DNA of 64,000 nucleotides from Candidatus Woesearchaeota archaeon. Lineage in GTDB: Archaea; Nanobdellota; Nanobdellia; Woesearchaeales; JAGVYU01. The stretch is from positions 11,724 through 75,723 of the forward strand of contig JAZDHV010000006.1 of assembly GCA_043805595.1 (NCBI GenBank). The letters run 5' to 3'. The first letter of the stretch is position 1. Every line of letters starts with the position of its first letter. The position numbers and the translations under genes are program-made. Positions 9,448-61,556 of this stretch are shown piece by piece. The notes under the pieces were generated by a model. The model worked only from the letters and a program-made list of their open reading frames with translations. It searched no databases and was not told the DNA's origin.

Positions 9448-12400
9448 CTATTTCTTAGAATTCTTATCTTTTTTAGAAGATTTATTATCTTTTTCTTTTT
9501 CCTTTTTATTATTATTCTCATCCAAAAAATCAAGGATCTTGTCATTATATTTTACAAACAATATGATGATAAAAACAATGACTAAGCCTGCAATAATATA
9601 ATTGAGATAATCAATGAAAAAAGAGGCTGGTTTGCTTATAATCAAACTGGCACTTTCCTTAATCTTGCCTAAAAAATCATTCAAATCCTCTTTAATTTTC
9701 TCTGAAATAGGAACATCAGGAGCTTTCTTTACAATAAGGAGCACTTCATTGCTCTCAACAACACCTCCCTTGCCATCATCAGCTGTAAATACCACTGTTT
9801 CAGCACCACTAAATCCTGGGTCATGGATTAACTTAGCTATACCAAGTTCATTGTCAATATCAATATTTATATGATCTGTAGACTCAGCTGAATAAACAAG
9901 CTTATCACCATCAGGATCAATGAAATATTGAGAAAGATCTAAGGATCTATTCTCATCAAAATTCCAGACCTGGATGGGAATACCTTTTTCATCAATAATA
10001 GTCTTATTAACAGATAAAATCCTGATCAGATTGTTCAATTCATTGACAGACAGTCGTGTCTTAACAATAATATCAACCATATTCTTTATCAACAAATCAG
10101 CGAACTCATCGTTAGAAAGGATTGCGTTGGATTCAGTGTTGACAACCTTGCCTTCAGCATTATACTTATAACGGCCATCTGATATTGAGCTGAGGATCTC
10201 ATCAGTCCTAAACTCCTCAATTGTTGTAGTGGGTTTCTCAGGTATTGTGACCAATGTTGTTACAATCATCGTTGTTGATGTTATCTCAGCTGAACTCAAT
10301 GCTGTCTCTGCAGTTGGAGTAATCAAAGAAGAGATTGTGTCATAATTATAATAAACCAAGCTGACAATAACAGCTATTATCACTAAAATAAGCAGATATA
10401 TTGGCCATTGGAGATCATCCTCCTTTTTAGGCTTTTTCTCCCTGATTATCTTTTCTTTTGGTTTTTCAGTTATCTTTTTTGGAGCAACAATGACTGTCTT
10501 TTCAACAGGCTTTTCTATTTTTTTTAATTCAATAATAGGCTTTTTCTCCAAAATAACAGGTTTCTCCCTCATCAGACCAGCAATTGCATAATAGCTAAAA
10601 TCAGGAAGTTTTGTCTCAAAATAAAGGAATGAATCATCCTCATCAATGATCTTAGTAGAAATATCAATCCATTGGCGCTTTTCATACCTCTTTATAATAA
10701 TTGATTTTGGATCAATATCTTGATACACAATCCATGATTTCTTAACCCTGAACCTCAGAAGGACATTTGAAAGGTTGTTTTCACTTATATTTTTTGCATC
10801 TATCTCAAAATACCTATAAACATGAGGGGAAGGCCTGATGAAAGTAGGCTTTTTTTTCAAACCTTTGATAGAGATTGATGCATTGCTAATCCTGCTCCTG
10901 ATCCTAAATGATATCTCACCAATACCAATCTTCTCATTCACTGGGATTGTGACATCATCACCAACTGAATATGTTGAGAGTGATTTTTCAAAATAATATG
11001 CACTACTCCTCCTTTTAACATATGAGCGTATAATAATCAAAATAATGACAATTAAAATGCCAATAATAATGTAAGTGAGATTATTCATCAAAAAAAGCAA
11101 GATAAAATTTATTATGCTCCATGCACCAAAAAAGATTGATTTAACAATTCCATATAAAAAACTTAGAATGTTGAGTATTCCAATCTTCTTATGGATATAA
11201 TAAATCAAGGCAATCAATATTGCAAGAAGCACAAGCAAAAACAATAAGGCAGGCCAGATTTTTGGCTCAACAATCTCAGGACCTATCTGCATCTTTTCAT
11301 CTTTTTTTACCTGCTTTTCAACCAGTTTTTTAGGTTCAATATTTTGACCTTTCTTTATTTCCGCTTTTATTGTCTCATCTTTCCTGATCTCATCTTTTTT
11401 TTCTGGTATTACTGGCTTTTCTTTTTTTGGCCACTTTGAAATAAAAGATATTACCTTAATCAGAATTATCAAAAGAACCAGGACAATGATTCCAGCAATG
11501 ATATAGGGGAAATAATCATTAATCATGGTTCTAACAGGTGTTATCACATTGTTGAGTGAGCCTGATAATGTCTGCAAAAATCCTATATTTTCTCCAGATA
11601 AAGTTGTTGATGTTGTTAAAGGCCCACTAGTAGTTGTGACATCTACTAATGATGATGTTGTAGTCTCAATCAAAGTGGTTGTTGTTTCAGCCAAAGTTGT
11701 TGTCTCTACAATCTCTATTGCAGTGGTTGCTGTAACATTTTCATAAGGCAAGAATGGCAACATATTCATGTAATAAAAAGCAGTGACAATTATTGCAATC
11801 AAGATAATCAAGAATACAGGCCAAACAGGAGGTCTTTTCTTTTCCTCTTTTGTATCCTTTAACACTAATTTTTTAACAGGCCCTGCCTTGGCTCTCTTTA
11901 ATGGCTTTTTCTCAACATTTTTTATCAATTCTTTTCTCTTTTTCTCTTGTTCTATTCTCTTTTTCTCCTTTTCTAATCTTTTCTTTTCCCTATTCTTTTT
12001 ATTGAGCTCTTTTTTCCTTGCCCTTTTCACTCTCCATTTGCTGTATCTAACTCTTATTTTTCCAGATGTTTTCCTTGAGAATCTAAGAAGTGGTCTTCTA
12101 AAAATTAGAATTATGATGATTAGTAACAATAAGGTAATTCCTGCCAAGAAAAACCATTTATACAATAAGACAAAATTATAAGCTGATTTAAAGTATCCAA
12201 AAATAGTATCCTTTAATGTACCTATAACACCCTTAATTTTCTCATACAATATCCCAATCTTGGATGTGAGAGGGGGTTCAATTGCAGCCACTTCTGTCGT
12301 TGTCACTTCCTCTACTGTTGCAGCAGTTGTCTCATTTACTGGAACAAACAAAGACTTGAAAAAAGGCGCGATAGGATAAGCCAGAAAGACATAGATCAGG

Positions 12401-14401: not shown

Positions 14402-15715
14402 TTAATAATAAGTTTGTGTCCCTTCTGCGTCCTCGTCTTCATCGCCTTTTAATTTGTTAAATCCAATTATCAGGCCAAGAATGACTAAAAGGACGACTAA
14501 AACAACCAAACCAATCTCCAAGCCTCTCTTAAGGCTTGATCCAGCAACACCACTAGCTGATGTTCCAGCAACATTTGCTGTAAGTGGAATCTGTTTTAAA
14601 ACACTGTCTCCTGAACTTACAGATAGGCTGAATCCATACTGACCAGCTGGCACGCCCTGCTTTGCTGACAAGAACACTAAAACTGAATCAGCATCACCAG
14701 CATTTACCAATATTGTGTTACTTGGCTGGATTGAAGCATCTAACTGGTTTCCACCATTAACAGATACTGTGTAAGCTCTTGTTGAAGAACCTGCATTAGT
14801 AATTGTCACCTGGTAAGCACCTGCTCCTTCTCCAGTAGATACATCCTGAACCTTGATTATTGTTGAAGGTCCAGCTTCTGGTTGTGTAGTTGGAACTACA
14901 GTATCAAGCTCACAAGCTTCATTTGGAATAACCTCGATTGTCCTTGTTGTTGAAGCAACCTCGTCACCATCATCATAGGTAACATCGATCTGTACTGTGT
15001 AATCTCCTGCTTCAGCACAATCAGGAATCCTCATGTAAAGCTCTTCACTTGTTGTTTGATCATCATCTTCACCCTCAGGCTCAAGCTCATCAATGTAGTC
15101 AGCAGCTGAAATTCCTAATTCTGGTATAGATACTTCAACTTTAACGCCGTCTTCATTTCTGTCTCCATTATTTTCAACCCTAACAGTTGTCAATAGAGCT
15201 CTTCCAGCCTTTATCTTTCCAGCAGGTGAAAAGATAACATCGTCAATATCAATTAAATGTTCTGGGGTTTCAACTAAGATTGCATAATATCTCATTATTG
15301 AAATATCCCTTGTGGTTCCATGAATAGTTAATATTATATCATAAATCCCTGGTTCCATTCTTTTTGTCAATCTTAGATCAAGTCTCTCAATGTATCTTCC
15401 TCCGACAGTCAAATCAAAAACTTCTGATTCAGCTGCAATCACATCATCTCTAGAATCACCTTTAATCTCAACTTCAATTTCGACATATCTATCTGTTGAC
15501 TCATTTGCATTAAATGTTATTTTCAATGGTAATGTTTCTCCTCTATCAAGAACTGCAAAGGAACCAGTTAGTGGATCTGGATCTCCTTCTGGTAGCTCGA
15601 TATTGTCGAGATAAACTGTTATTGAACTCTCGTCTATCTGTGCACTTGCAATTGTTGTAAGTGCCAAGACACTTATCAGAAACATTAACAACATTCCGAA
15701 TATTTTACTTTTCAT
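14402..15715 (-). CDS. S-layer-like secreted surface protein with C-terminal TM anchor and acidic tail
   Basis: 437 aa; N-terminal signal peptide MKSKIFGMLLMFLISVLALTTIASA; C-terminal GLEIGLVVLVVLLVILGLIIGF followed by DEDEDAEG; Thr/Ser/Gly/Asp-rich beta-like composition. Confidence 0.55.
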   Translation of the reverse strand: MKSKIFGMLLMFLISVLALTTIASAQIDESSITVYLDNIELPEGDPDPLTGSFAVLDRGETLPLKITFNANESTDRYVEIEVEIKGDSRDDVIAAESEVFDLTVGGRYIERLDLRLTKRMEPGIYDIILTIHGTTRDISIMRYYAILVETPEHLIDIDDVIFSPAGKIKAGRALLTTVRVENNGDRNEDGVKVEVSIPELGISAADYIDELEPEGEDDDQTTSEELYMRIPDCAEAGDYTVQIDVTYDDGDEVASTTRTIEVIPNEACELDTVVPTTQPEAGPSTIIKVQDVSTGEGAGAYQVTITNAGSSTRAYTVSVNGGNQLDASIQPSNTILVNAGDADSVLVFLSAKQGVPAGQYGFSLSVSSGDSVLKQIPLTANVAGTSASGVAGSSLKRGLEIGLVVLVVLLVILGLIIGFNKLKGDEDEDAEGTQTYY

Positions 15716-15947: not shown

Positions 15948-18900
15948 TTAATATATTTCTAATTCTCTATGACGGACTCTCCTCAAGTCATCACTTTTTG
16001 TTGAAGCTATAGAAACCCTCACGTCATAAATTCCTGGATCTGCCCAGTCTGGAATCTCTAAGTCAGCAAGTTTCGTCACTGTTGTCTTTGCATCAATACC
16101 AAAAGGACCTAACTTTCTTCTAACTCCAAGTTCAGGAATTGTGTATGTGACTGTAATCTCTTTTATATCATAATAGTCGTTGTTAGTCATTGTAATTACT
16201 GCCTGAACACTGCTTCCTGCCTCAAACTTATCTGAGTATGTTCCGTCGAAACTAATCCTGTCAATAAACAGCTTTCTACGAGGAGATGAAATCGGATCTG
16301 GTATAACTACGTCAATAATAAAATCCTGCAAGTCTGTCAAAAATCCGTCGGAAACCATGATTATCACATGATTTTCACCAGCCTGATCCTCATCTGGATC
16401 CCATTGTATCAATCCAGTAACTGGATCAATTGTCATGTCAGCCGGCCATGTTATTAGTGAATATACAAGAGGATCATTGTCAGGATCTGACGCATCTGAA
16501 TCATACTCATATCTCTCAACAAAATCCATTGGATCATTAATCTCTAAATAAGTTACAGGTGCTGATGTGAAATAAGGCGCATGATTAATCAATGGATCAA
16601 ACAAAACATTTACAACAAATGTATCCTCTGTAAATAATCCATCCGGATCCTCTGCCCTCACAACAGCTGTGCATGAACCGATAAAAGATAAGTCTGGAAC
16701 TATGTCAACATCATCATTGGAGCCAATTGATATTCCACATTGATTGTTGTTTGAAACAGACATCAAGGTGTATGTTAATTCTGAATCTGAATTATCTGGA
16801 TCGTCGGTATAATCATTCAGATTGAAAACATTATCATTCACAGAGTCTTCAAATACATCCTCATCAGGCAATCCGCTTATAACTGGTCCATCATTAATCT
16901 CATCATCGTCAAAATAATCAGTGCAACCTAGGTCATCAGGAAAATCTGTATATGTGTCAAAATCGTTGTCTACAGAATCAGAACACTCAGTATAATCACA
17001 ACCTAAACTATCATCACAAATAAAATAACAATAATCAGTGCCTGTATCAACATCTAAATCACAATAACTATGCTCAGTACCAGCATTCTCACAAATCGGA
17101 GTGTGAGTAGTGGTAACAAAATCAAGACCACCACAAGCAGACTCATCATAAGGAGAACCACAATCAAGATCAGCATAACACAAAACAGGACCATCTGATT
17201 CGTCATCGTCAAAATAATCAGTGCAACCTAGGTCATCAGGAAAATCTGTATATGTGTCAAAATCGTTGTCTACAGAATCAGAACACTCAGTATAATCACA
17301 ACCTAAACTATCATCACAAATAAAACTACAATAATCAGTGCCTGTATCAACATCCTCATCACAATAACTATGCTCAGTACCAGCATTCTCACAAATCGGA
17401 GTGTGAGTAGTGGTAACAAAATCAAGACCACCACAAGCAGACTCATCATAAGGAGAACCACAATCAAGATCAGCATCACAAACAACAACACCATCAGACT
17501 CATCATCATCAAGATATGAATCACAACCAAAATCAGCTGGATAATCTATATCACCATCACCATCATTATCAACACCATCATTACATTCATAAAATTGCCT
17601 TACAACAGTCAAAGTAACAACATTACTGTCTGCTGTCCCACCATTGCCATCATTTGCAGTAAATGTTACAGTCTCAACACCAAAATAACTAGATGGCTGA
17701 GTAAAACTGACAATATGGGAAGTTGGATTGATTGAAACGACAATATTAGGATTGTCTAAAGCAGATGCTGCATATGACAGAGCATCTCCATCTGGATCAG
17801 AAAAATAGTTGTCTAGGTCAAAAGCATTCAAATTTGATGTCCCTTGGTTCCATGTCTCATCAGAAATTGGGTTTACAATTGGATCAAAATTAGGCGGATC
17901 ATTTATAGGTGTAACAGTTACTCTGAAAGTGTCTTCAGAATATAATCCATCTGGATCTGTAACTCGAACAACAGCGTCACAAACACCATTAAAATCTAAT
18001 GCTGGAGCAATGTCAATATTGTCTGAACCATCAATGCTTATTCCACATTGATTGCTGTTTGAAACTGATGTAAGAGAATATATCAATTGTGAATCTGTAT
18101 TATCTGGATCACTAGCAAAATCATTCAAGTTAAAAGCATTAGGCTTTGTTGTGTCTTCTGCAAGAGTCTGATCAGGCAATGAACCAATCACAGGAGCATC
18201 ATTAACAGGAGTGACAGTAACCCTGAAAGTATCTGTATCAAAAGCTCCCAAAGGATCTTCAACCCTAACAGTAACATCACAAATTCCATAAAAATTAAAA
18301 TCAGGATTTATGTCAATATTGTCGCTTCCATCAATAGTAACTCCACATTGATTTCCATTAGTAATAGATGTCAATGAGTAAGCCAATAAAGAGTCAGCAT
18401 GATCTGGATCACCTGCATAATCATTCAAGTTAAATGCGTTATTAATTGATGCATCCTCTGCTAATGTTTGATCAGGCAATCCGCTTATTGTTGGTGCGTC
18501 ATTGACTGGTGTGACAGTAACTGAGATTGAATCAGTATCAGTCAATCCACCTGTATCTTGAACTGTGAATGTGACTATGCCTGTTGAACCACTATATCCC
18601 GGAGCAGGTGTAAAAGTCACAATATGAGTTGTTGGATTGATTGAAACACCAACATTAGGCAATTGATTAGATGTCCATGACAGATCTCCATCAAGGTCTT
18701 CCTCATCCTGGACATAATCATCCAAGTCAAGACTGTTATGGATTGTGTCTTCTGGGAATGAAACATCAGGAATATTAGTTATGATTGGAGGTGTGTTTGC
18801 CTTGTGCATAGCTCTTGAGACAGTCAGGTCTGTATTAGAAATATCAAACTCTCCTTCAATTGGAAGATATAATGGATTTGTAACATCATATGTATAGTGG

Positions 18901-20201
18901 CCGTTTACATAACCGCCGATAACAGCAACGCCATTTGAATTGGTTGTTGCAGTCTGACCATTTGATGAAACAGTTGCGCCCTGGATTCTTGCAGCAGTTG
19001 TATCATCTGAAATTATGAAAGTAACCTCATAGACTGGAGCTGGAGCAACATAAATCTCTTCCTGAGCTGTCTCAGTTGGATTAGGTTTTCCGTCACAAAG
19101 CGGTGAGTCAGCAGTTCCTGCCACTTCCATTGTAAAAACATCCTCATATGGAGCAACCCATTGGAATGAATGTGCTGTCGGATCAACTTCATTCGGATTA
19201 GCTGGAAGTGAAGCTGAACCAGATAAAATAACCTGATGAGCTGAATTTCTCACTTCATAATCAATATCTGTAGGAACAGATGTCAAAGCATGCTGTGGAT
19301 CAGCATAATTGCTGATCTTATTATACTCAACTGTTACAGTGTCTCCTGCAACTGGATAAGGATCAGTTGTCCTCAATCCATTGATGATTGTGTAACATTC
19401 ATTTGTAGGCCTTCCTGGAAGCACACCAAAATATTTACTTGATGACAATGGAATATTTGAGGAACATTGGTTGTCAGTAACAACAGTCCTTACTGTTGCC
19501 TCATATTGTCCGTCTTCAGCAGGAACCCATGAATATTCAACATTTTTCACCTCATCCATAAAGATTGGGTCACCATGTGCAGCATCAAAATAAGTCATCT
19601 GCTGGTTAACAATCTGGCCATCTTTTTTGATTGTCAAAGATACAGTAGTGTCTGCAGAATAATAGATATCCCTGTATGCTGGAGGGATATATCCAACATT
19701 ATTATGAGCATCCTGGAAAGCTGAATGAGTTACTGCATCTAATGAAGCAGAAACATTAACCTGCAAAGGCTCATTAGCATAAAGATCATTTGTGACTGTG
19801 AATTCATCAATTGTAGAAGCGCAATTTGCAACTCTGTCAAAATTAATATCAACACTTCCTGAAGCATGTCCAGGATTGCAAAAAGTATGGAATGTAGCAA
19901 TGCCTTCAACAGGGATATATCCTGTATCAGCTGGATTTGCTGCTGGAACTATGAAATAACCTGCATAACCAAAAGGGGACAATAAACAAGAGGGGAATGA
20001 GATCAGCATGTGCCCATTAGAGGTTGATCCTGAAAATGAAAATGGAGTTGAGCTAACAGTATCACAGTTAATGTCGAGACAGGTAAAGAACTTTGATTCG
20101 ACATTGTTGACATTAAAGTTAAATGTAATGTCTGCAACTGCAAAGACATTTGCTGCCAGAAGAACAGCTAAAAATGGCATTATAAATAGTATTTTTTTCA
20201 T
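15948..20201 (-). CDS. Giant (1417 aa) secreted adhesin-like protein with cadherin-like (VNDAP) repeats and duplicated Cys/Asp-rich modules
   Basis: Signal peptide MKKILFIMPFLAVLLAANVFA; at least three ~100-aa repeats RVTVTPVNDAPxISGLPDQTLAED; two near-identical Cys-rich modules; no C-terminal anchor. Confidence 0.7.
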   Translation of the reverse strand: MKKILFIMPFLAVLLAANVFAVADITFNFNVNNVESKFFTCLDINCDTVSSTPFSFSGSTSNGHMLISFPSCLLSPFGYAGYFIVPAANPADTGYIPVEGIATFHTFCNPGHASGSVDINFDRVANCASTIDEFTVTNDLYANEPLQVNVSASLDAVTHSAFQDAHNNVGYIPPAYRDIYYSADTTVSLTIKKDGQIVNQQMTYFDAAHGDPIFMDEVKNVEYSWVPAEDGQYEATVRTVVTDNQCSSNIPLSSSKYFGVLPGRPTNECYTIINGLRTTDPYPVAGDTVTVEYNKISNYADPQHALTSVPTDIDYEVRNSAHQVILSGSASLPANPNEVDPTAHSFQWVAPYEDVFTMEVAGTADSPLCDGKPNPTETAQEEIYVAPAPVYEVTFIISDDTTAARIQGATVSSNGQTATTNSNGVAVIGGYVNGHYTYDVTNPLYLPIEGEFDISNTDLTVSRAMHKANTPPIITNIPDVSFPEDTIHNSLDLDDYVQDEEDLDGDLSWTSNQLPNVGVSINPTTHIVTFTPAPGYSGSTGIVTFTVQDTGGLTDTDSISVTVTPVNDAPTISGLPDQTLAEDASINNAFNLNDYAGDPDHADSLLAYSLTSITNGNQCGVTIDGSDNIDINPDFNFYGICDVTVRVEDPLGAFDTDTFRVTVTPVNDAPVIGSLPDQTLAEDTTKPNAFNLNDFASDPDNTDSQLIYSLTSVSNSNQCGISIDGSDNIDIAPALDFNGVCDAVVRVTDPDGLYSEDTFRVTVTPINDPPNFDPIVNPISDETWNQGTSNLNAFDLDNYFSDPDGDALSYAASALDNPNIVVSINPTSHIVSFTQPSSYFGVETVTFTANDGNGGTADSNVVTLTVVRQFYECNDGVDNDGDGDIDYPADFGCDSYLDDDESDGVVVCDADLDCGSPYDESACGGLDFVTTTHTPICENAGTEHSYCDEDVDTGTDYCSFICDDSLGCDYTECSDSVDNDFDTYTDFPDDLGCTDYFDDDESDGPVLCYADLDCGSPYDESACGGLDFVTTTHTPICENAGTEHSYCDLDVDTGTDYCYFICDDSLGCDYTECSDSVDNDFDTYTDFPDDLGCTDYFDDDEINDGPVISGLPDEDVFEDSVNDNVFNLNDYTDDPDNSDSELTYTLMSVSNNNQCGISIGSNDDVDIVPDLSFIGSCTAVVRAEDPDGLFTEDTFVVNVLFDPLINHAPYFTSAPVTYLEINDPMDFVERYEYDSDASDPDNDPLVYSLITWPADMTIDPVTGLIQWDPDEDQAGENHVIIMVSDGFLTDLQDFIIDVVIPDPISSPRRKLFIDRISFDGTYSDKFEAGSSVQAVITMTNNDYYDIKEITVTYTIPELGVRRKLGPFGIDAKTTVTKLADLEIPDWADPGIYDVRVSIASTKSDDLRRVRHRELEIY
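16903..17502. repeat. Near-perfect 300-bp tandem duplication inside adhesin gene
   Basis: Seen directly: 16903-17202 vs 17203-17502, only a few mismatches; encodes duplicated Cys-rich module DCGSPYDESACGGLDFVTTTHTPICENAGTEHSYCD... Confidence 0.85.
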
Positions 20202-20283: not shown

Positions 20284-21789
20284 TTAAGGACCTGGATTTA
20301 GAGCTCCTCCCCCAGTAAAACCTCCACCACTCAAAACCCCTCCATTACCTGTTGGTCCAAAAGCATTGAAAAAGCTACCAGTTCCTCCTAATTGAGGAAT
20401 GCCGCCAGGTGAAGGTGGCAATTGAGGACACCATGGAATAAGACTATTACTACCATTTGGAACCATAATAGGAATAATATATATCTGCTGTTCAGGTTCA
20501 GGTGGAGTGTATAATGCTTTTTCAGCAGCTGCACCTACACCTTGAGAAGCAATGTCTATACCATAATCAATCAGTTTATTTGGACCTTTTACACCAGGTG
20601 CAAATAATGAAAATCCAAATAAACCACCTTGACGGTAAGAAGCAACATTCAAAACAAGAGGATCTTCTGTTAATTCAGACCTGTTGGATCTGCAGAGCAA
20701 TAGTATATCATTGCCATTAGAATCTACAAAAGGAACTAAATAATTAGCATTTGCTGCATTATCAGATCCAAATGCTCTCCAGAAAATCTGCTCATTAGTC
20801 AATGAACCAATATTTTGGCCAAGATCAACTTCATAAACAAAATTAACATCATCTCTCCTGTCTCTAAACAGATTAAGCAATCCTTTTGTGAGTTCTTTTG
20901 CAACATAACCACCTGCTCCAACTTCCGGCTGACCTAATGAAGCAGATGTTCTATAAGCTGCCAATCCAGCACCCATAAATTTCTCAAGTAAATTCCTGAC
21001 ATAAACTGTCTCATGCTCAAGATCAGGTCCATTATTACAGAAAACAAAAGAGATTTCTGGAATATCATTTGCCCTTATTCTCTTATCATAAAAATTAGTT
21101 GTCCTTGCATAAACCTGAGGGAATACCTTATTAATCTCTCCATCAGGATTGAATCTGCTGTAAAAAATCAGGAAATCCTTAAATCCTCCTGTAATGTCAG
21201 GATCGCTTACATACAATCCAGAAACCTGCATTTCTCCCTGAGGCAAGAAGTGTCTTGCAAACTGAGTAATATTAAATACTCCTTCTTGTGTTGAGCCAAT
21301 CCCATTCAAATAATTTTCACCAAATCTTAATAATTCAGAGTTTCCTGGTATTGAAGATTTTCTTGATGTGATCAAATTAACATCTACAGGAACAACATAA
21401 GATGTTCCATCAGATGGAATATGATCTTTAAGACCAGGATTGGGATCAATTCCAGTACCATTAATCAATGCACTTATCTGGCCTTGTTTTTTTGCTCTTT
21501 GAGCCATTTCTGTTTGGAGAATTGAATCAAGATCAGCTGGATCAAAAACATCTTCACATTCTGCTTGCGCAGGTTCTGGGGCTTTTTCCCTCACTTCTGG
21601 AAAATTTTCTGGAACTCTTCTTGATTTTGTTGTATGATCAACACCATAATTCTGTGTTGCACATGAAGCAGCTACAGCAACAATTGAAGTACCGATTACA
21701 AAATCTCTTGCTAATGCTTTAGCAGTATCCCATGCATTTGTTAGATATTCCATTGGATTTAAAAGATTGATATTATTCATTTTATTCAC
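20284..21789 (-). CDS. Hypothetical membrane-anchored protein with Gly-rich C-terminus
   Basis: 501 aa; N-terminal hydrophobic anchor FVIGTSIVAVAASCATQ; C-terminal GGIPQLGGTGSFFNAFGPTGNGGVLSGGGFTGGGA; 8-nt overlap with upstream gene. Confidence 0.45.
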   Translation of the reverse strand: MNKMNNINLLNPMEYLTNAWDTAKALARDFVIGTSIVAVAASCATQNYGVDHTTKSRRVPENFPEVREKAPEPAQAECEDVFDPADLDSILQTEMAQRAKKQGQISALINGTGIDPNPGLKDHIPSDGTSYVVPVDVNLITSRKSSIPGNSELLRFGENYLNGIGSTQEGVFNITQFARHFLPQGEMQVSGLYVSDPDITGGFKDFLIFYSRFNPDGEINKVFPQVYARTTNFYDKRIRANDIPEISFVFCNNGPDLEHETVYVRNLLEKFMGAGLAAYRTSASLGQPEVGAGGYVAKELTKGLLNLFRDRRDDVNFVYEVDLGQNIGSLTNEQIFWRAFGSDNAANANYLVPFVDSNGNDILLLCRSNRSELTEDPLVLNVASYRQGGLFGFSLFAPGVKGPNKLIDYGIDIASQGVGAAAEKALYTPPEPEQQIYIIPIMVPNGSNSLIPWCPQLPPSPGGIPQLGGTGSFFNAFGPTGNGGVLSGGGFTGGGALNPGP

Positions 21790-23932
21790 CTCTGCCTCTT
21801 CCTAATCTGCTGAATGGCCCACGAGCAATTGCTGCCAGATTATGGCCTAAATTTTGAATACCATGTTTAACAAATCTAACTGGACCTCTGCTATGGTCTT
21901 CAAAAGTCTCTTCAATTGTCTGCCTATTCCCAATTAAATGAGTTATTATTCCATCTTTATCCCTGTAATCAATCAAAGTCTGATCAACAACAGATAAAAC
22001 TCCAGCTGCCTGATCTAAATATTTACTATCAATAATATTTGAATCAGCTAAATTTGTTAATGCAAGGGCAAATGCCTCTGCAGGAACAGATGGATTTGTT
22101 ACGCTCATTTTTCCAGCAAAATATCCAGTTCCAAAACCAGGTTCAACATCAGGAACATTTTCTGCTCCTTGAGCTAAATTCCCAATATTAGATGTCATAG
22201 CAGAGATTTCATGGCCACTGTTTGTAATTAAATCTAAAACAGTATCACCAGGAGCAACTCCAATGTCATCTCCATAACCAAGTGCTGGAATATCTCGCAT
22301 AAAGTTGAGTCTAACTGTTTGTTTTCCTCTCTTACCTGTATCAACTTGTATTTGAGCAAGGTCTCTTGTACTTGATTCTAATTCATTACCGAGAGAATCC
22401 AATAATTGTAATTGAGTTAATTGATCAGGTGTTGTTTGCAAAGGAACTGGATTTAATTTAGAATCTAAATCTGCATCTTCAGCTTGAAAAGTATTATTTG
22501 CTGTTTGAAGCTCTGCTCTTGATTCTAGTGCTTTAATTGTCTCTTGCCTTGCGGTTCTTAAGCTTGAATATGCGCCTTTTAACTCAGATCCCCTTTTCCC
22601 ATAAGCATCAATTAATGCTGCAAGAGTTTCGTGTCCTGTACCTGCAATTAGAGATTGATTACTATCAATTGTTTGTTGAGCTATTTCTAAATCAGCCCCT
22701 CTTTTACCATAAGCTCCTAATAAAGCTAAAAGATTATTATGACCAGCACCTGCAATTTGTGCATTAATAGCATCAATATCAGATCTTGCTGTTCCTAAAG
22801 CAGCTGAAGTTTCTGAAAGCATAACTTGAGAATCTATTAAATCACCTTGAGCTTGTCCATAAGCTGCTAAAGCTTTGTCTCTTGCTAATGCAGCTGGCCT
22901 AGCTCTTGCATATTCTGTAAGAAAACTTCCAGCCATAATACCTGCAATTGCTGCAACTGCAGTAACTTTTACAACATTTCTTCTACACCAATCTTTTACT
23001 CTTTGATATAAAGAAGAAGGACTTGTAGTAATTTCAGGCAGAGTATCACTAGATGCTGCGACACTGCTTTCAGAAGTATCTGGTCTTTCAGCTGGAGCTG
23101 ATCCATCAGAAGCAGGACTACCATATAAACTTGCACTAACATCACTCTCGCTCAAACCAGGCCTATCACCTGGGGGAGTATCTCCAATCTCAGCTCTTGG
23201 ACCCTCTGGTGTTCGCATTGTAACTTCTGGAGTTCTAACACCACAAGGAAATCTGGAACTTGATAATTTATCAGGAACTCTTCCGCCTGCATAAACTGGA
23301 TGAGCTTCTCCAACAACAGCCTCTAAAGGTACATCTTGAGGTAGTACAACATCATCATCGCCTGGATGATCACCAGGACAACGAATTGTAGATTTACTCA
23401 TACCCCAAGCTTTATGAGCTCTTTGTAATGTTGATTGAGAATCTGAATCAACAACATCATCTATATCAGCTGGAGAAGTTGTATAACCATTAGCAATTTG
23501 CCGAGCTTTTGCCATCTTTGACAGACGAAGCTTGTCATCACTTCTCCTGTAATCAAATCCGTCGAGAACTCCTGAATAAAAAGCCCGTGCAGTTAGATTT
23601 AAGTCTCCTAAAATTGTATCAACAGATTCATCAGAATTTTGATATCTTTGACGAGCATTTGCTATATCATCATCAGATAATTGAGAAACTGATCTTAAAT
23701 GCGAGGAATCTTTTCCCTGATGTCTTGAGACTGTTTTAACAGTGCCATATTTGACACCAAATTGGTCACCAACTGCTTCTCTTCTTTCTTGAAGAGTTAG
23801 TTTTCTTCCATCTTCACTATGAGTTTTTGCTTGAAATGCAGTATAAATTTCATCTGCTTGAGTTGCATTTAAATCCCTGTATGTTGCTCTAGAAGCATAG
23901 TCTGGTTTTTTTTCAATATTTCCTTTAGTCAT
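21782..23932 (-). CDS. Hypothetical single-pass membrane protein with C-terminal coiled-coil repeats
   Basis: 716 aa; central TM VVKVTAVAAIAGIMAGSFL; repeated AGxGHxxLxALxxAYGKRGxxL units; higher GC than surroundings. Confidence 0.45.
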   Translation of the reverse strand: MTKGNIEKKPDYASRATYRDLNATQADEIYTAFQAKTHSEDGRKLTLQERREAVGDQFGVKYGTVKTVSRHQGKDSSHLRSVSQLSDDDIANARQRYQNSDESVDTILGDLNLTARAFYSGVLDGFDYRRSDDKLRLSKMAKARQIANGYTTSPADIDDVVDSDSQSTLQRAHKAWGMSKSTIRCPGDHPGDDDVVLPQDVPLEAVVGEAHPVYAGGRVPDKLSSSRFPCGVRTPEVTMRTPEGPRAEIGDTPPGDRPGLSESDVSASLYGSPASDGSAPAERPDTSESSVAASSDTLPEITTSPSSLYQRVKDWCRRNVVKVTAVAAIAGIMAGSFLTEYARARPAALARDKALAAYGQAQGDLIDSQVMLSETSAALGTARSDIDAINAQIAGAGHNNLLALLGAYGKRGADLEIAQQTIDSNQSLIAGTGHETLAALIDAYGKRGSELKGAYSSLRTARQETIKALESRAELQTANNTFQAEDADLDSKLNPVPLQTTPDQLTQLQLLDSLGNELESSTRDLAQIQVDTGKRGKQTVRLNFMRDIPALGYGDDIGVAPGDTVLDLITNSGHEISAMTSNIGNLAQGAENVPDVEPGFGTGYFAGKMSVTNPSVPAEAFALALTNLADSNIIDSKYLDQAAGVLSVVDQTLIDYRDKDGIITHLIGNRQTIEETFEDHSRGPVRFVKHGIQNLGHNLAAIARGPFSRLGRGRGE

Positions 23933-24147
23933 ACATTATCCCCTTCTAAAAGTTGTTTTAAAAAAATTATTATCTAATTGTAGGGTAGAAATATCTATTA
24001 CATATTTAAATCTTTTGTATTGATACTATTATAAAGTACTAATATAACTTAACTATTTTATAATAGATACTTTCTGGTTTTGTTGAGGGGAGGTTTTTGA
24101 TAAAAATTTAATTAGAATTAAATATTATTAGTCATTCTCTCTTTTCC

Positions 24148-25236
24148 ATGATATCAATTGTTGGCGCAGGACCAGTAGGTTGTTTTGCAGGATATCTTCT
24201 TGCAAAAAAAGGGCTTGAAGTTGAGATATATGAGAAAAACAAAGAAATCGGCAAGCCAGTGCAATGCACAGGGATTGTGACAAATTCCATTCTAAAATTG
24301 ATTGAAATTCCTGATGAATGTGTTGCTAATAGAATCAATGATGTCGAGATATGTGCTCCAAACGGAAAATCACTGAAAATCAGGTTTAGGGAAGCAAATC
24401 TTATCCTTGACAGAGAGAGATTTGACAAATTTTTAGCCCAGACAGCTGAAAAAGAGGGAGCAAAGATATTTCTAGGCAATAAAATTGAAATTGTTAGAGA
24501 CAATATGTTATCAATAAAAAAAACAGGCAGTGAGGAGAAGGTTGAAAGAAGATCTGATGTAATCATCGGAGCAGACGGGCCGCAAAGTGCAATAGCAAAA
24601 TCTCTTGGAAACAAAAAAAGAGAATACTGGACAAGCCTGCAATACAGGATTGAGCATAAAAATGAGAACAAGATTGAATTCTATCCATATTTAGGAACAT
24701 TTGCATGGATTGTTCCTGAGAATAAGGAAATTGCTCGCGTAGGCATAATTGGATCATTTGGTATAAGGAGAATATTGGATGATTTTTTAGAGAAAAAGAT
24801 TGGAAAGGATTTCAGAGACAATATAATTGAGACACAAGGTGGATTGATACCAAAATTTGATGCAAGAATGAACTTTAACAAAGAAAACATGTATATTATA
24901 GGTGATGCTGCCGGACTTGTAAAGGCAACAACTGCTGGAGGAATTATCCAAGGGATGAAATCAGCTGAAATATTGGCTGGATGCATTGGAACAGACAAGA
25001 AATTTTCAAGAGAATTGAGAAAGAGATTGTTTTTTGACTTATCTCTGCATAAATATATGAGAAATATTATGGACAAATTTGAGGAAAAAGACTGGAACAG
25101 GCTGATAGGATATTTTGACAAGCCAAGGATGAAAAAAATACTAGAGACAATTGACAGGGATGAGCCAAGCAAAATGGTATTTAAGCTATTGCTGAAAGAG
25201 CCAAGGCTGATCTATTTTGTTAAATTCCTTATTTGA
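24148..25236 (+). CDS. Geranylgeranyl reductase family FAD-dependent oxidoreductase
   Basis: 362 aa; N-terminal Rossmann IVGAGPVGCFAGYLLAKKG, IIGADGPQSAIAK and GDAAGLVKATTAGGI motifs typical of archaeal GGR. Confidence 0.75.
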   Translation: MISIVGAGPVGCFAGYLLAKKGLEVEIYEKNKEIGKPVQCTGIVTNSILKLIEIPDECVANRINDVEICAPNGKSLKIRFREANLILDRERFDKFLAQTAEKEGAKIFLGNKIEIVRDNMLSIKKTGSEEKVERRSDVIIGADGPQSAIAKSLGNKKREYWTSLQYRIEHKNENKIEFYPYLGTFAWIVPENKEIARVGIIGSFGIRRILDDFLEKKIGKDFRDNIIETQGGLIPKFDARMNFNKENMYIIGDAAGLVKATTAGGIIQGMKSAEILAGCIGTDKKFSRELRKRLFFDLSLHKYMRNIMDKFEEKDWNRLIGYFDKPRMKKILETIDRDEPSKMVFKLLLKEPRLIYFVKFLI

Positions 25237-25261
25237 CAAACATAAAAATTAATTATCTAAA

Positions 25262-25330
25262 CTAAAGAACCACCAGTCAGAGACTGGTGGAATTCACTAA
25301 ATCCACAACTGCAATACCTCCATGAAGCAC
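25262..25330 (+). repeat. Truncated copy C of the palindrome-rich element
   Basis: ctaaagaaccaccagtcagagactggtggaattcactaaatcc; palindrome 25270-25290; diverges after ~45 bp. Confidence 0.7.
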
Positions 25331-25331
25331 A

Positions 25332-26105
25332 CTAACCTTTTCCCACTAAAGTTTCAAGAGGACTATTTTTTTCGCCGCCTTTGGCGGACTCTCCTAAAAG
25401 TACCCCACGCAAGGCATCATGATCGCTGACATCGCGAAAGTTAGCATTGAAATTGGAATTGTTGACAAAGCCGTTAAGCCTAGACGCCCGCGCAACAATC
25501 TCATCATCCTTAATACTCTCAGCAGCATGATCAGGATTCATTGTGAATACTCTTGTTTCAGAAATTCTACCATTTACTCTTAGATTATCCATAACTCTTT
25601 CAAGCATATAACCAGAACCATAACCAGCACTAACCCAAGGCACCCTAGCAACAGTAACATCCTTATCATACCTACCAGTTCTGACATGAAATGACCTATA
25701 CTCAGCATCACTTCCTTTAAGCCTCAACCCTTTAGGATCAACAAAAACAACATCCCCTGCCTGCTCTAACCTCAAAATAAGATCTTTTTGTCCAGAATTA
25801 AGATGAACATAACCAATACCAGCAAGCTCCTGACACACAGTTGAAGTGCCTTCTCCAAAAACCACATTAAAAGCAGCATTCCCACCAATACCCAACAACA
25901 ATTTTCCATCTCTTTTTGTAGCAAGAGGAGCATTAGCAGTATAAAACCAAACTCTTCTCAATCCTTCACCAGCTATCCTAGCAGCAGACAATTGCGCACC
26001 AGTATTAATAGTAGAAGGAACAAACAACCCATAAATATCTTTTAAAGCTCCTTGCCTAACATTATAAACAAACTGTTGTTCTTGTGCATTATTCATTTTC
26101 CACAC
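25332..26105 (-). CDS. Hypothetical protein (paralog of 26140..27036 in C-terminal region)
   Basis: 257 aa; shares C-terminal VARASRLNGFVNNS...ALRGV segment with neighbour; unusually GC-rich codons. Confidence 0.5.
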   Translation of the reverse strand: MWKMNNAQEQQFVYNVRQGALKDIYGLFVPSTINTGAQLSAARIAGEGLRRVWFYTANAPLATKRDGKLLLGIGGNAAFNVVFGEGTSTVCQELAGIGYVHLNSGQKDLILRLEQAGDVVFVDPKGLRLKGSDAEYRSFHVRTGRYDKDVTVARVPWVSAGYGSGYMLERVMDNLRVNGRISETRVFTMNPDHAAESIKDDEIVARASRLNGFVNNSNFNANFRDVSDHDALRGVLLGESAKGGEKNSPLETLVGKG

Positions 26106-26139
26106 TCCAATTTTGGATTATATATTGATAATTAAAACT

Positions 26140-27036
26140 TTAACTTTCCTGACATTTACCTCTGTAAAGAGCTCCAACAGCCTCATAACCTCCAATTGTA
26201 GCAGGAGTTAAACTTGCAGCCATAATCTCTTGCGCCCTTGGCTTTGCAAGAAGTGCCGCAACTTCCTGAATTTTTTTCGAGTCGGCTTCGCCGACAATTT
26301 GTACCCCACGCAAGGCACCACGATCGCCGACAACGCGATGGCCAGCAACGAAACTGGAATCGTCGAGAAAGTTGAGAAGCCTAGACGCCCGCGCAACCAC
26401 CCCACCCTCAGGAATAAACCTTTCAATATGAGTCTCAGTTGGAAACCAAAGCCTTGTTCGTTCAACCTCCCCATCTTCTCTAAGCATATTCATATTCTCC
26501 CCATAATCTGGAAATTCTTGTTTTGGATCATATTTTGCTGTCAAACTGCCATGTGCCTTAACAGCAAAAGGCCTCACAACATCACTTAATCTTTCAGCAC
26601 GAACATCAGAAGTATTAACTGGAACATAACTCCACTCATCATTTTTTCTAATCAACCCTAATTCAGAAGCTAAAGCCCAATCAATATCAAATCCAGAAAG
26701 CAATTGCAGTTGAGACTCTGTAAGAGTGTAAACATGCCCCTCACTTTTCAATATCTCTCCACTAAATCTATCAATATCTGCACCAGCAACAGAATCAAAA
26801 GCCTGCCTACCACCAAGACCATACTCAAGATTACTATCAGAAACTCTGAAAAGAAACAAATTAGCAGTATAAACACATTTTACTCTCAGATCAGGATCTG
26901 TTGTCCTTCTCTGATTCTGAACCTCAGAAGCCTCTTGAAAAGTCCATTTTTCCAACCTTTTATAACCTTCAGCAAGACAATCTAAAATGGTTTCAAGCAT
27001 TAAATCAGGCATTTTAGAGATAGAAATGAGCAACAA
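26140..27036 (-). CDS. Hypothetical protein (paralog of 25332..26105 in C-terminal region)
   Basis: 298 aa ORF (true start may be internal MPDLML); C-terminal VARASRLLNFLDDSSF...ALRGV; DNA block 26301-26398 resembles 25399-25495. Confidence 0.5.
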   Translation of the reverse strand: MLLISISKMPDLMLETILDCLAEGYKRLEKWTFQEASEVQNQRRTTDPDLRVKCVYTANLFLFRVSDSNLEYGLGGRQAFDSVAGADIDRFSGEILKSEGHVYTLTESQLQLLSGFDIDWALASELGLIRKNDEWSYVPVNTSDVRAERLSDVVRPFAVKAHGSLTAKYDPKQEFPDYGENMNMLREDGEVERTRLWFPTETHIERFIPEGGVVARASRLLNFLDDSSFVAGHRVVGDRGALRGVQIVGEADSKKIQEVAALLAKPRAQEIMAASLTPATIGGYEAVGALYRGKCQES

Positions 27037-27381
27037 TTTATAAACTTTATTAATATCTTTATTATAAAGTAGTAAATTATTTTATAAAATTGTCAATTCT
27101 TAACTGATTACGTGAGAAACCCCCAACTTAAGCCAAATTAACATTAAAATGCAATGCATTTCTAAGCTCCCAGAAATTCCAAATGAATTTTAAGGATATA
27201 TTGAGAGTATATTATTTATAATCAAAACTAAAACAAACTTTTATAAAAGCAGAATAAGTCCCTATCCTATTATATATGCTAAGGGGAATTGATAAAATAA
27301 TTGATATTACAAATTATTAATTAGTAATATTAATTGGAAATATTAATTGGTAATTGATAATGTTAATGTGTAATTGATAAG

Positions 27382-30300
27382 GTGATGTCATTGGATGATG
27401 ATTTTGATGATGAAGAGATTTCATTTGACATGAAAAAGGTAAAAGGATTCTTCAAGAAAGTAAGTGGATCATTTAGCGATGATGATAAATCTCTTGATGC
27501 TCTTGATGAGAAAAAAAAAGATAAAAAAGATATCCATGAAGAGATAGAGAAGAAAAAAGAAGAGCTCAGGAGATTAGAGGCTGAAAAGGGAGAAGAGAGT
27601 CAAAGAGAGAGTCAAAAAAAAGAGGAGAATGGGAAAAAGGAAGAATACAAAGAAAAAGCAATAAAAGAGGATAAAAGAGAGGTTGCATGGAAAAAGAAAG
27701 ATATAATTAATGAAGATAATAAAACAGAAAAAGACGATGATGAACTCAATATTGATTTTTCTGGAATCAAAAACTTTTTTAAAAAAAAGGCCAAAAAAGA
27801 AAAAAGCGAGGATGAAGAAAAGGATGAAGAATTTTCAGATGTGACAAAAACTATAAAAAAAGGATATACTTATATTAAAAATAAACCTTGGATCATCCCA
27901 ACAATCCTTATCATATTTATACTACTGTTCTGTGTCTATTTCAGCGCTAATCTTAGATATCAGTCAGCAATATTGCCGATAACAGATGTTTGGGCAAGAG
28001 ACAATATATATAATGGGATAAGAGCCCAGGTTGAGAATAAAGTCAATAATGAATATCCAAATCTTCCTGATGAGAACAAAGCAAAAATAATTGAGAAAGA
28101 GTTTGAAAAGATCCTGAGTGAAAACAAAAAGGAAATTGATAATGCAATATCAGCCTCCTCAAACCAATTTAAATCAAGATTAAGGCGAGATATCACAAAC
28201 AGCAAAGGAGAGGTTATTGGTGAATTCACCTACCTATTGGCAATTGACCCTTATTATTGGACAAGGCATGCAAGAAATATACTTAACAATGGACATCCAG
28301 GAGACGAGCTTAGGGATGGAAAGCCGTTTGACAATCATATGTTTGCACCTTTGGGAAGGTTTATCGTGCCTGACATGCTCCACGCATATCTTTCTGCTTA
28401 TTTATTTAAAGTGTTCCAGTTTTTCAACAGAGACCTAGACCTAATGAGTTTCATTTTCCTTATGCCAATCCTCATCAGCGCTTTGGCAGTGATCCCTGGA
28501 TTTTTTATCACAAGAAGGCTTGCAGGCAATTATGGAGGATTTGCAGCAGGGTTTTTAATCGCAGTCCACGCTGCCTTTCTCAACAGGACAATGGGAGGGT
28601 TTTCAGATACAGATGCATATAGCGTGACACTGCCATTATATACAGCATGGTTCTTTTTAATTGCGTTTGAAGAAAAAGACCTAAAAAAGAAAATAATATA
28701 TTCTGCCTTATCTGGCATTTTAATCGGCCTTCTTGGTTTTGCATGGACAGGAGGATGGTGGTATATGTTCTATCTTATAATAATATCCACAATAATATAT
28801 GCCATTGGCTATCTAGCAGTCTATTTAATATTAAATTATAAAAAAGGAATAAAAATCAACCAGATAGTCAAACTAAAATTTATTAAATATAATTTTATTA
28901 TCTTGATCGTATTTATAATGTTCTCAGGCATTTTTATCACTATGTTTCTAGGATTCAATGAGTTCTATACAGTCGTGGAAAAACCTATGGGATTTGTCAC
29001 ATTAAAGCAAATAGGGGCAACATCTGTCTGGCCAAATGTCTTCACAACAGTGGCTGAACAGAATGAATCATCATTTCCTGAATTGATTGGAAATATAGGA
29101 GGCACATTCTTATTTTTCCTGAGTCTTTTAGGAATATTATTTGTATTTATAAAGGGGATAATATTTTTGATCAAAGATAAGGAGGGTGGATTGATTTATA
29201 TCAAGTACAGCATCCTGCTTGTCCTTTGGTTTGCTGCAACAGTATATTCTGGAATAAAAGGTATAAGATTCATATTATTATTTGTTCCTGCATTTTCGAT
29301 TGCAGTAGGACTTGCATTGGGGATTATATACCAGTATGCTGTCAAGATAATATCAAATGAATTAAAGATCAACAAACTAATCACACAAGTAGTCATCATA
29401 GCCCTGCTATCTTTAATCCTGATCAAGCCTCTGCAATCTGCACAATCAACAGCATATCAAGACATTCCAAGCATGACAGATGAATGGTGGAGCTCTTTAG
29501 AAAAGATAAGATTAGAAAGCAGTGAGAATGCCATAATAACATCATGGTGGGATTTCGGGCATTGGTTCAAATATATTGCAGACAGGCCTGTAACATTTGA
29601 CGGAACATCACAAGACTCACCAATGGCCCATTGGGTAGGATATTCACTCCTGACATCTGATGAAGATATCAGTGTCGGAATATTAAGAATGCTTGACTGC
29701 GGCAGCAACAATGCATTTGATGAGCTTGACAAGGTAATAAATGAAACTTACAAGAGCGTGGATACAATCTATGAGATAATTGTTTTAGAGAAAGAAGAGG
29801 CAAGAGAGGTATTGAAAGAGTATGGACTTAATGAAGAGCAGGCAGAAAATGTTTTGAAAAATACACACTGCGAGCCTCCTGAAGCATATTTTATAACCTC
29901 ATCTGACATGATAGGAAAAAGCGGAGTATGGGGGCATTTTGGAATCTGGAATTTCAGGAGATCAACAATGTATAACAAAATAAAAGATAATAATCTTAAT
30001 ATGGACAAAGGTGTCAAATATCTAAAAGATGAATTCAACATGACAGATGATGAAGCACAGGCAATATATTTAGAAATTCAATCATTGGGAACTGGCAGGG
30101 ATGCAAATGACTGGACAGCACCTTGGCCAAGCTATGCATCTGGAATTGATCCATGCACACCAGAAGATGAAGGGATATATATCTGCTCATTATTTGGAGG
30201 CGGTGCTGGACTGTTTAACTCTACATCAATGGAACTGGTATTTAGTTCAGCCCAAGGCATAGACAAACCCAAGAAATTGGTCATACTGAATGAAACTGGA

Positions 30301-34449: not shown

Positions 34450-35448
34450 ATGGAGAGAAACAACAGAATGTCAAATGATTATGATCTTAAAAATGCAATC
34501 AGCAATTTTGATAAAAGAAGGATTCTGGTATTAGGAGATATTGCCCTTGACCATTACCTAATTGGAGAAGTTGAGAGGATAAATCCAGAACAACCTGCTG
34601 CTCCATTAGTAAGAGTAAATGGACATAGGTATAACCTAGGGGCAGGAGGCAATGTTGCACAAAATCTGGCAACATTAGATGCAAAAGCAACCTTATGCGG
34701 ATTGATAGGAAATGACTTTTATGGGGGAAAGGTAGAGGAAATTTGCAGACAATATGGAATATCATTTATACCAGTATATAATGGAGATGATAGGAGCACT
34801 ACAGTAAAACAGAGACTATTAGCCCATCAACAACAAATTGCCAGATTTGATGAAGAAGATACAAGCCCAATATCTGAAGAAACAGGCCAAATGATCCTGG
34901 ACAGAATAAAACCTTGCATTGATGAAAGTGATGCAGTAATATTATCTGATTATAATAAAGGGCTACTAATTGAATCAGTTGTCAGAGAAGTAATAAAATA
35001 TGCAGCACAAAAAGGTGTCAAAGTTTATTCTGAAGTGAAACCAACAAATGCTATATTCTATCAAAACTCAACATTAGTATGCTGTAATCTTAGCGAAGCT
35101 GAACAATTCACTAATCTCAGACTAAATGGCAGAGCTGACAATATTATAAATATTGGAAGAGAAATGATGCAGAGATTATCTCCAGAATATTTAGTCATCA
35201 CACTAAGTGAAAGAGGAATGTTCAGCTATGATAGTCATCATAATCATGCTTTAGAACCTACAAAGGCAAAATCTGTTGTTGATGTTTCAGGAGCAGGCGA
35301 TACAGCTATCTCATTATTGGCATTAGCCAATCTTGAACTAGATATTCATGCATCTGCATATCTAGCGAATCATGGAGCAGGCGCTGCTATTGAAAAGGTT
35401 GGGACAGCCACTATCACAAGAGATGAGCTATTGAAAAGCCTATCATGA
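34450..35448 (+). CDS. PfkB-family sugar kinase, heptose 7-phosphate kinase-like (HldA / HldE domain I-like)
   Basis: 332 aa; ILVLGDIALDHYLIGEVERINPEQPAAPLVRV...GAGGNVAQNLATLDAKATLCGLIGNDFYG closely matches RfaE domain I signature; C-terminal DVSGAGDT. Confidence 0.7.
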   Translation: MERNNRMSNDYDLKNAISNFDKRRILVLGDIALDHYLIGEVERINPEQPAAPLVRVNGHRYNLGAGGNVAQNLATLDAKATLCGLIGNDFYGGKVEEICRQYGISFIPVYNGDDRSTTVKQRLLAHQQQIARFDEEDTSPISEETGQMILDRIKPCIDESDAVILSDYNKGLLIESVVREVIKYAAQKGVKVYSEVKPTNAIFYQNSTLVCCNLSEAEQFTNLRLNGRADNIINIGREMMQRLSPEYLVITLSERGMFSYDSHHNHALEPTKAKSVVDVSGAGDTAISLLALANLELDIHASAYLANHGAGAAIEKVGTATITRDELLKSLS

Positions 35449-61391: not shown

Positions 61392-61556
61392 CTAAAGAAC
61401 CACCAGTCATAGACTGGTGGGATTCAATAATTCCACGTCCATTACATCTAAGGACTGGTGGTTCTTAGTGCTCAGGAATTTTTCACTCCTGAAAGCTAAA
61501 TCAATCAAAGATTGCCACCAGTCAGAGACTGGTGGAAAATTCCTGACATTTTAATG
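61392..61556 (+). repeat. Palindrome-rich repeat element, copy D (near-identical to copy A)
   Basis: Identical to 1681-1810 over ~130 bp, then 4 substitutions/1 indel in last palindrome; palindromes 61400-61420 and 61515-61535. Confidence 0.85.

Follow-up and report, generated by a model that had tools for sequence, protein, structure and literature searches.

What are the four genes that lie, with a geranylgeranyl reductase gene (GGR), between positions 20284 and 27036 of a Candidatus Woesearchaeota metagenome-assembled genome (MAG) contig, and do they belong together? We have analyzed a 64-kb stretch of this contig, which we refer to as the window, and we have named the four genes A, B, C and D. 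A previous sequence-only reading had described them as a compositionally distinct block lacking recognisable domains and had proposed that they could be one horizontally acquired module, either viral or envelope-related. According to our results, the block is made up of two unrelated variable units, C/D and B/A, located within a conserved cell-surface and glycosylation cluster. We assign a probability of about 0.8 to the reading in which C and D are tandem paralogs of the AvpA-like C-type-lectin-fold family, i.e. target proteins of an archaeal diversity-generating retroelement (DGR), and B/A is a separate surface unit. This identity of C and D, which is central to the locus, had been missed before.

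In a DGR, a reverse transcriptase (RT) copies the RNA of a template repeat (TR), misincorporating opposite adenines, and the cDNA overwrites a variable repeat (VR) that lies close to the 3' end in the target gene. As an outcome, about 15 residues of the ligand-binding surface are randomised and the scaffold is kept. The features of C and D that are relevant here are the following:

26140 to 27012, minus strand: gene D, probable AvpA-like C-type-lectin-fold DGR variable protein, 290 amino acids from the ATG used by NCBI.
26301 to 26397, minus strand: VR of D, residues 206-237, with the GC-rich invariant 3' end GCCTTGCGTGGGGTAC.
26281 to 26295, minus strand: hairpin of D, GTCGGC-GAA-GCCGAC, 5 nt downstream of the D VR, candidate DGR hairpin/cruciform.
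25332 to 26105, minus strand: gene C, 257 amino acids, paralog of D and of the same fold family.
25400 to 25496, minus strand: VR of C, residues 204-235, with six AAY codons retained.
25375 to 25387, minus strand: hairpin of C, CCGCC-AAA-GGCGG, 12 nt downstream of the C VR.

By comparing the two VRs, of 97 nt each, we found that their first 21 and last 16 nt are identical, and that both end in the same GC-rich sequence, GCCTTGCGTGGGGTAC, which resembles an initiation of mutagenic homing (IMH) site. They differ at 18 of the 97 sites, nine of them at codon position 1, nine at position 2 and none at position 3, and in 16 of these 18 differences one of the copies carries an A. Third-position identity between C and D is complete inside the VR (32/32) and drops to 47% in the remaining gene; outside the VR, the two proteins share 25% of their amino acids. 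We then contrasted these differences with the TR of a complete DGR from a relative (locus L010), and 14 out of 18 coincide with its adenines (23 of its 92 nt are A; hypergeometric P=1.2e-7). For the present genome, the inferred TR (GTTGCGCGGGCGTCTAGGCTTAACAACTTTATCAACAATTCCAATTTCAATGCTAACAATCGCGATGTCAGCGATCATGATGCCTTGCGTGGGGTAC) is 82% identical to that of L010, contains eight AAY codons and would permit about 3e13 protein variants. Judging from the letters, this is the pattern that two VRs written from one adenine-mutagenised template should display. Regarding the C-type ortholog found at L013, its VR shows 8 third-position differences with the C VR (counted by eye), versus 0 between the VRs of D and C, a contrast that points to a shared resident TR and to concerted evolution of both VRs within the genome. 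The Asn-rich VR of C was also considered as a candidate for the TR itself, and was rejected: it lies inside a full-length C-type lectin (CLec) open reading frame (ORF) with its own hairpin, and C-type orthologs exist elsewhere.

Complete DGRs of the same family, with target, TR and RT together, are present in other DPANN genomes. At L010, the VR (10615-10707) and the TR (11050-11142) have 14 mismatches, 12 of them at TR adenines, and the RT next to them has an LGNLTSQ motif of the DGR type as well as YVDD. At L134, the VR (8616-8707) and the TR (9105-9196) adjoin a 461-amino-acid RVT_1 gene, and at L004 a fragment of an RT directly follows the target gene. Family loci without an adjacent RT are the ones most often seen (L001, L006, L009 and L135). 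As a separate observation, in L010:10997-12205 and L134:9042-10427 the TR is found within the 5' end of the ORF called for the RT; either the RT ORF has been prolonged by gene callers through a TR that lacks stops, or the TR does form part of the RT gene. The RT of L004 (9730-9800) is truncated at its 5' end, beginning at LGNLTSQ with a G10 homopolymer before it, and reflects either decay of the cassette or an artefact of assembly.

The predicted structure of D gives the link to known DGR targets. An AlphaFold2 (AF2) model built from 26 sequences reached a predicted local distance difference test score (pLDDT) of 87.7 and a predicted template modelling score (pTM) of 0.84, and its Foldseek comparison with the PDB gave 5ioo_A as the sole significant match (E=2.3e-4). 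This entry is the crystal structure of AvpA, the variable protein encoded by a Nanoarchaeota DGR (PMC5006420). Besides the C-type lectin fold of the AvpA subtype, as predicted by the model, D resembles AvpA in its layout: the VR is internal (residues 206-237 of 290) and is followed by an invariant strand motif (ALRGV in D, in strand 232-238; RFxGV in AvpA) and then by a helical C-terminal extension (helices at 245-289 in D), which is of low confidence and whose DNA encodes the hairpin. The stems of the hairpins downstream of the VRs differ among C, D, L004, L009 and L084 but stay complementary through compensatory changes, which is consistent with a DGR hairpin, though weak as evidence when taken alone.

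C and D belong to a large family that is not covered by a model of Pfam, NCBIfam or PHROGs. The D family comprises about 25 close clusters, all of them from DPANN MAGs or metagenomes, C aligns with it in the multiple alignment (its orthologs being P0022, P0024 and the one at L013), and a full profile search of the C/D family retrieved 658 representatives at E<=1e-3 (50% clustering). A DNA scan of the genome contig collection returned one related VR, that of L013. In the scan of metagenome DNA with a short anchor, L033 and L084 were genuine, after filtering, among the matches listed, which were for the most part chance hits to GC-rich contigs from soil, and the metagenome contig L084 holds a second tandem pair, with two VRs. 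Family members occur singly among housekeeping genes in many DPANN genomes. This type of lectin-fold domain is also fused C-terminally to Ser/Thr protein kinases and to a prokaryotic RING finger (P0091, P0159, P0152; L136:5589-7367), which hints at a signalling role for the family. We saw no signal peptide or hydrophobic segment in C or D; because of this, and because relatives are fused to Ser/Thr kinases, both are probably variable intracellular ligand-binding or sensor proteins. In addition, a D homolog at L001:13349-20864 is located 2.5 kb from four consecutive kinase genes.

For B we found only one homolog, P0027, which comes from another Woesearchaeota MAG (locus L008). This locus is collinear with the window over GT9, DUF2304, GT2, AglB/STT3, GGR, B, A and a Big_9/cadherin adhesin, with neighbouring proteins 84-98% identical and flanking DNA 85-88% identical. 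The features delimited by this comparison, together with the remaining genes of the block, are these:

25241 to 27224, no strand: C/D indel, 1,984 bp relative to L008, holding a repeat copy, C, D and the region upstream of D.
25253 to 25330, plus strand: truncated copy of a hairpin-rich repeat of ~150 nt, beginning at the left edge of the C/D indel.
24148 to 25236, plus strand: GGR (TIGR02032, 3.7e-58), 84% identical to its L008 ortholog.
20366 to 23188, minus strand: hyperdivergent segment, B from residue ~249 on plus A residues 1-474, without nucleotide homology to L008.
21782 to 23932, minus strand: gene B, single-pass membrane protein of 716 amino acids.
20284 to 21789, minus strand: gene A, predicted secreted lipoprotein with a Gly-rich C-terminal tail.

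In the blastn alignment of the window with L008, homology ends at 27225 and restarts at 25240, so that 1,984 bp stand in place of 4 bp of L008. The edges of this indel carry imperfect 10-bp direct repeats, TTATCTAAAC at 25253-25262 and TAATCAAAAC at 27219-27228, which match at 8 of 10 positions in AT-rich DNA and are not significant by themselves. L008 keeps the order AglB-GGR-B-A-adhesin but has no C or D. Since B/A and GGR are syntenic in L008 and C/D is a separate indel, the block is not one module, contrary to the earlier proposal of a single acquisition. Both C/D and the middle of B/A do vary between close relatives, but not as one joint module. GGR, which sits between the two variable units, is an ordinary conserved host gene and is outside both.

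The truncated repeat copy that had been noticed inside the block belongs to a genuine repeat family. Within the window, this family has two full copies (1681-1828 and 61392-61539, 97% identical to each other) and further members at 2111-2328, 2451-2572 and 25253-25330. The element is built from hairpins of the type CCACCAGTC-NNA-GACTGGTGG, and the RNA fold of 1681-1835 has a minimum free energy of -59 kcal/mol (z=-7.15). An Rfam scan of the window gave no match, this element included, and the repeat was absent from all the relative loci that we fetched. It could be an element of the miniature inverted-repeat transposable element (MITE) type or a small structured RNA.

Regarding the second unit, the stop of B and the start of A overlap by 8 nt, and the two genes are probably co-translated. 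The N-terminal ~250 residues of B are conserved (58% identical to the L008 homolog) and lack a signal peptide, and are presumably cytoplasmic; next come a linker rich in Ser and Pro, a single transmembrane segment (about residues 320-342) and a C-terminal region that is helical. From the linker on, B is hypervariable and cannot be aligned with its L008 homolog, the C-terminal ~370 amino acids differing in length and repeat content. The sequence-only reading was right in calling B a membrane protein, but its repeated AGxGHxxLxALxxAYGKRG units were overstated, as the motif occurs just twice (residues 394 and 430). The N-terminal anchor and Gly-rich C-terminus that it attributed to A were both seen: A has a single hydrophobic segment at residues 25-47, which ends in AAS-C-AT, and a Gly-rich C-terminal tail. 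The L008 homolog of A carries a canonical twin-arginine translocation (Tat) signal and a lipobox, TRRGFLAAAATALAGC continuing into AT (LAG-C-AT); a lipobox, putative in A, and the Gly-rich tail are common to both proteins, which share 24% identity over 369 residues (E=3e-21). The NCBIfam lipoprotein signal-peptide match of A is weak (E=0.47), and from these sequence features A is a probable lipoprotein. PDB sequence searches with A and B found no relatives, and the AF2 model of B aligned with its single homolog had a pLDDT of 34. Homology to L008 at the nucleotide level stops at 23189 and returns at 20365, leaving a hyperdivergent segment of ~2.8 kb, and is regained only in the last ~27 residues of A. 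The pair sits between AglB/GGR on one side and a 1,417-amino-acid Ig/cadherin adhesin, an S-layer-like protein and a 1,565-amino-acid membrane protein on the other, and both A and B are plausibly envelope proteins.

Several neighbouring genes showed features of their own. In the adhesin (15948-20201), 300 nt are duplicated in tandem at 16900-17499 (96% identity), and there are further diverged copies; over its first 1,013 residues, the protein matches its L008 ortholog at 91% identity. The gene at 14402-15715 encodes a secreted protein of 437 amino acids that matches the Pacearchaeota-type model 'PACE-CTERM putative S-layer protein' with E=9.8e-21 and 74 bits, below the cut-off of 110, and also matches Ig-like domains (FixG_C, NPCBM_assoc). 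AglB/STT3 has a Lys/Glu/Asp-rich N-terminal extension of ~170 residues before its first membrane segment (27382-27900, GC about 0.28), which is kept in L008. Farther away, at 62342-62477, between the genes at 61572-62348 and 62461-63462, 8-nt repeats recur periodically in an AT-rich array, after which comes a perfect tandem duplication of 34 nt.

An ORF check of 20284-27036 recovered all four minus-strand ORFs, with the mechanical ORF of D running further, to a TTG at 27036. A, B and D are identical to the NCBI hypothetical proteins V1740_00885, V1740_00890 and V1740_00905, respectively, from a Candidatus Woesearchaeota MAG, where they are encoded on a contig of 99,375 nt. Pfam, PHROGs and NCBIfam scans of A to D, including subsequences at E<=10, yielded no usable match, in agreement with the earlier statement that the four genes have no recognisable domain, and BLASTP confirmed C and D as a paralogous pair (31% identity, E=8e-15). 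The description of the block as markedly more GC-rich, on the other hand, did not stand. Its GC content is 37.5% versus 34.5% in the remaining window, and among the 52 window ORFs D ranks 1st (41.5%) and C 2nd (40.2%), with B only 7th and A 13th. The surplus sits wholly in codon positions 1 and 2; at third positions (GC3), B (0.13) and A (0.18) have the lowest values of the window. Across all 52 ORFs, the GC of the first two positions (GC12) and GC3 are anticorrelated (r=-0.72). GC3 ranges from 0.13 to 0.25 in the Ala/Gly/Asp-rich genes of the window, which are mostly surface proteins and also include a PfkB kinase (34450-35448), and from 0.31 to 0.43 in the Lys/Ile/Asn-rich ones. A strand effect was ruled out as the cause of the low GC3, both patterns occurring on both strands. 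The adhesin and the S-layer-like gene next to the block share its signature, and therefore composition does not delimit it. Hence, the slight GC excess is the consequence of amino-acid composition (Ala/Gly/Arg/Asp-rich proteins) and not of foreign base composition; high GC12, low GC3 and similar neighbours trace it to the amino-acid bias that the earlier reading had itself named as the alternative.

We also searched for viral relatives. We obtained no match for A, B or D by tblastn against 50,697 phage records, none in four IMG/VR scans with the proteins and the VR DNA pattern, and no significant match of the D model in the BFVD viral structure library; no integrase was found among the window genes scanned for Pfam domains. 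With phage records, IMG/VR, BFVD and PHROGs all without a usable match, viral origin finds no backing. From the former 'viral or envelope-related' module, the envelope part is plausible for A (putative lipobox) and B (bitopic); the viral part and the single module are not supported.

A number of observations weigh against our interpretation. Within the window, no TR was found with exact anchors, with anchors allowing 3 mismatches or by blastn with the inferred TR, and no RT by tblastn with that of L010 or by scanning ORFs for YxDD. The structural alignment of D with 5ioo_A has an identity of 7-8%, and when the profile of 26 C/D members was run on every PDB sequence at E<=10, AvpA was not detected and the only match was an unrelated one. 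The hairpins are short and their folding energies alone are not significant. For the surface unit, A and B have no structural or family match, their homologs come from one other genome (L008), and two genomes do not separate recombinational replacement from rapid divergence in situ. Since there is no TR or RT in the 64 kb, the DGR mechanism is one that we infer for this genome. Given that the VRs are identical at every shared site, both would have been written recently from one TR-RT cassette, which would either lie outside the window and act in trans or have been lost very recently. The most likely case is a cassette elsewhere in the genome acting in trans, recent loss being the alternative; remote or partial DGR arrangements have been described (PMC4372165, PMC8144416). 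One could argue that C and D are fossil targets, whose TR-RT was lost and whose VRs are frozen relics that evolve like ordinary sequence. The lack of RT and TR within 64 kb would fit, as would the Woesearchaeota AvpA-like genes marked 'no DGR' in PMC5006420 and the fact that most family loci (L001, L006, L009, L135) have no adjacent RT. We regard this as unlikely, however, in view of the 79 shared VR sites with zero differences, including 32/32 third positions, compared to 47% elsewhere in the paralogs; moreover, targets in trans are a known DGR arrangement (PMC8144416), and the search covered only the 64-kb window of a contig that is about 35 kb longer and is itself one part of the MAG. A scenario without a retroelement, in which ordinary gene conversion made the repeats of the two paralogs alike and the binding residues then came under positive selection, is highly improbable. 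Tandem paralogs that lie 900 bp from each other lend themselves well to conversion and a tract of 97-116 nt at 78-81% identity would be compatible with it, but selection alone leaves the absence of third-position changes in 18/18 unexplained, the differences coincide with adenines in the TR of homologous DGRs (P=1.2e-7) and the same VR framework adjoins real TR-RT cassettes (L010, L134).

For the hyperdivergent segment of B/A, allelic replacement through recombination with a distant allele is the most likely origin as far as these sequences tell, and it would be accompanied by diversifying selection on exposed surfaces; its sharp boundaries favour such a replacement. Very fast evolution in situ, under relaxed or positive selection, seems to us rather doubtful. 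In its favour, A can still be aligned with its L008 counterpart (24% identity over 369 residues), the putative lipobox and the Gly-rich tail are kept in both versions, and the conserved and variable parts of B share a low GC3. Yet the flanking DNA differs by only about 12%, so that a protein divergence of 76% would imply exceptionally fast local change, homology is lost abruptly at 23189 and comes back at 20365, and the B ectodomains are unalignable and unlike in length and repeat content. As for the whole block 20284-27036 being one horizontally acquired viral or envelope module, four proteins without recognisable sequence domains, a slightly elevated GC content and the absence of C/D from the sister genome L008 would speak for it. 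Nevertheless, we find this scarcely credible: in L008, the order of AglB, GGR, B, A and the adhesin is conserved and C/D is its own indel, many DPANN genomes have members of the C/D family standing alone between housekeeping genes, there are no phage or IMG/VR homologs nor any BFVD fold match, and the composition reflects an amino-acid bias common to the neighbouring surface genes.

Taking C and D as DGR targets, we can compare them with the systems already described. AvpA-like CLec proteins have been reported as DGR targets from Nanoarchaeota, Pacearchaeota and Woesearchaeota (PMC5006420, PMC4372165, PMC6349945). AvpA itself is encoded in a complete cassette and its sequence link to C/D is undetectable, whereas C/D are two tandem targets with no TR or RT in 64 kb. 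The partial or remote-target DGRs, such as that of Nanoarchaeota OTU1 (PMC4372165), share with C/D a VR target, a GC-rich VR end, a hairpin and signs of adenine-directed mutagenesis with no RT nearby; they differ in that C/D are two paralogous targets relying on one inferred TR, and that the pair occupies a small indel with a genome-specific repeat at its border. With Mtd of BPP-1 and TvpA of Treponema (the formylglycine-generating enzyme (FGE)-type CLec subclass), C/D would have in common a CLec scaffold with TR-templated residues; the VR likewise has a GC-rich end that is IMH-like and a hairpin after it. In contrast, C/D are of another CLec subclass, have a VR about half as long and an archaeal host, are neither receptor-binding tail fibres nor lipoproteins, and we saw no avd gene. 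Population genomics of bacteria and archaea has brought forward the concept of replacement-type flexible genomic islands, which hold cell-envelope genes. B/A resembles them in its fixed position within a conserved surface and glycosylation cluster, with divergent versions in close relatives; unlike them, it is known from two genomes, consists of orphan genes and shows no swap of glycosyltransferases.

The added value of the C/D locus is modest, and consists of a tandem two-target layout without a local RT, a large family that the domain libraries do not model and a precise indel that starts at a genome-specific hairpin repeat. Neither C/D nor B/A overturns current understanding. The DGR signature could be read from two VRs alone, with RT and TR off the window, and this matters since remote DGR targets escape contig-based surveys (PMC8144416). 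As a more speculative and quite improbable scenario, C and D could together form a small mobile cassette carrying DGR targets, delivered or rearranged via the hairpin repeat at its left edge, one remote TR-RT may diversify several cytoplasmic lectin-fold sensors, and the B/A segment may be a host-specificity determinant of a probable episymbiont. If true, the kinase-fused lectin-fold sensors would amount to programmable intracellular ligand sensing in a DPANN archaeon. B/A is a sharply bounded hypervariable surface locus beside N-glycosylation genes, and a candidate for studies of host interaction in Woesearchaeota. Finally, two 'hypothetical proteins' can now be recognised as probable targets of programmed hypermutation, and a family model seeded from the C/D alignment would annotate many DPANN genes.

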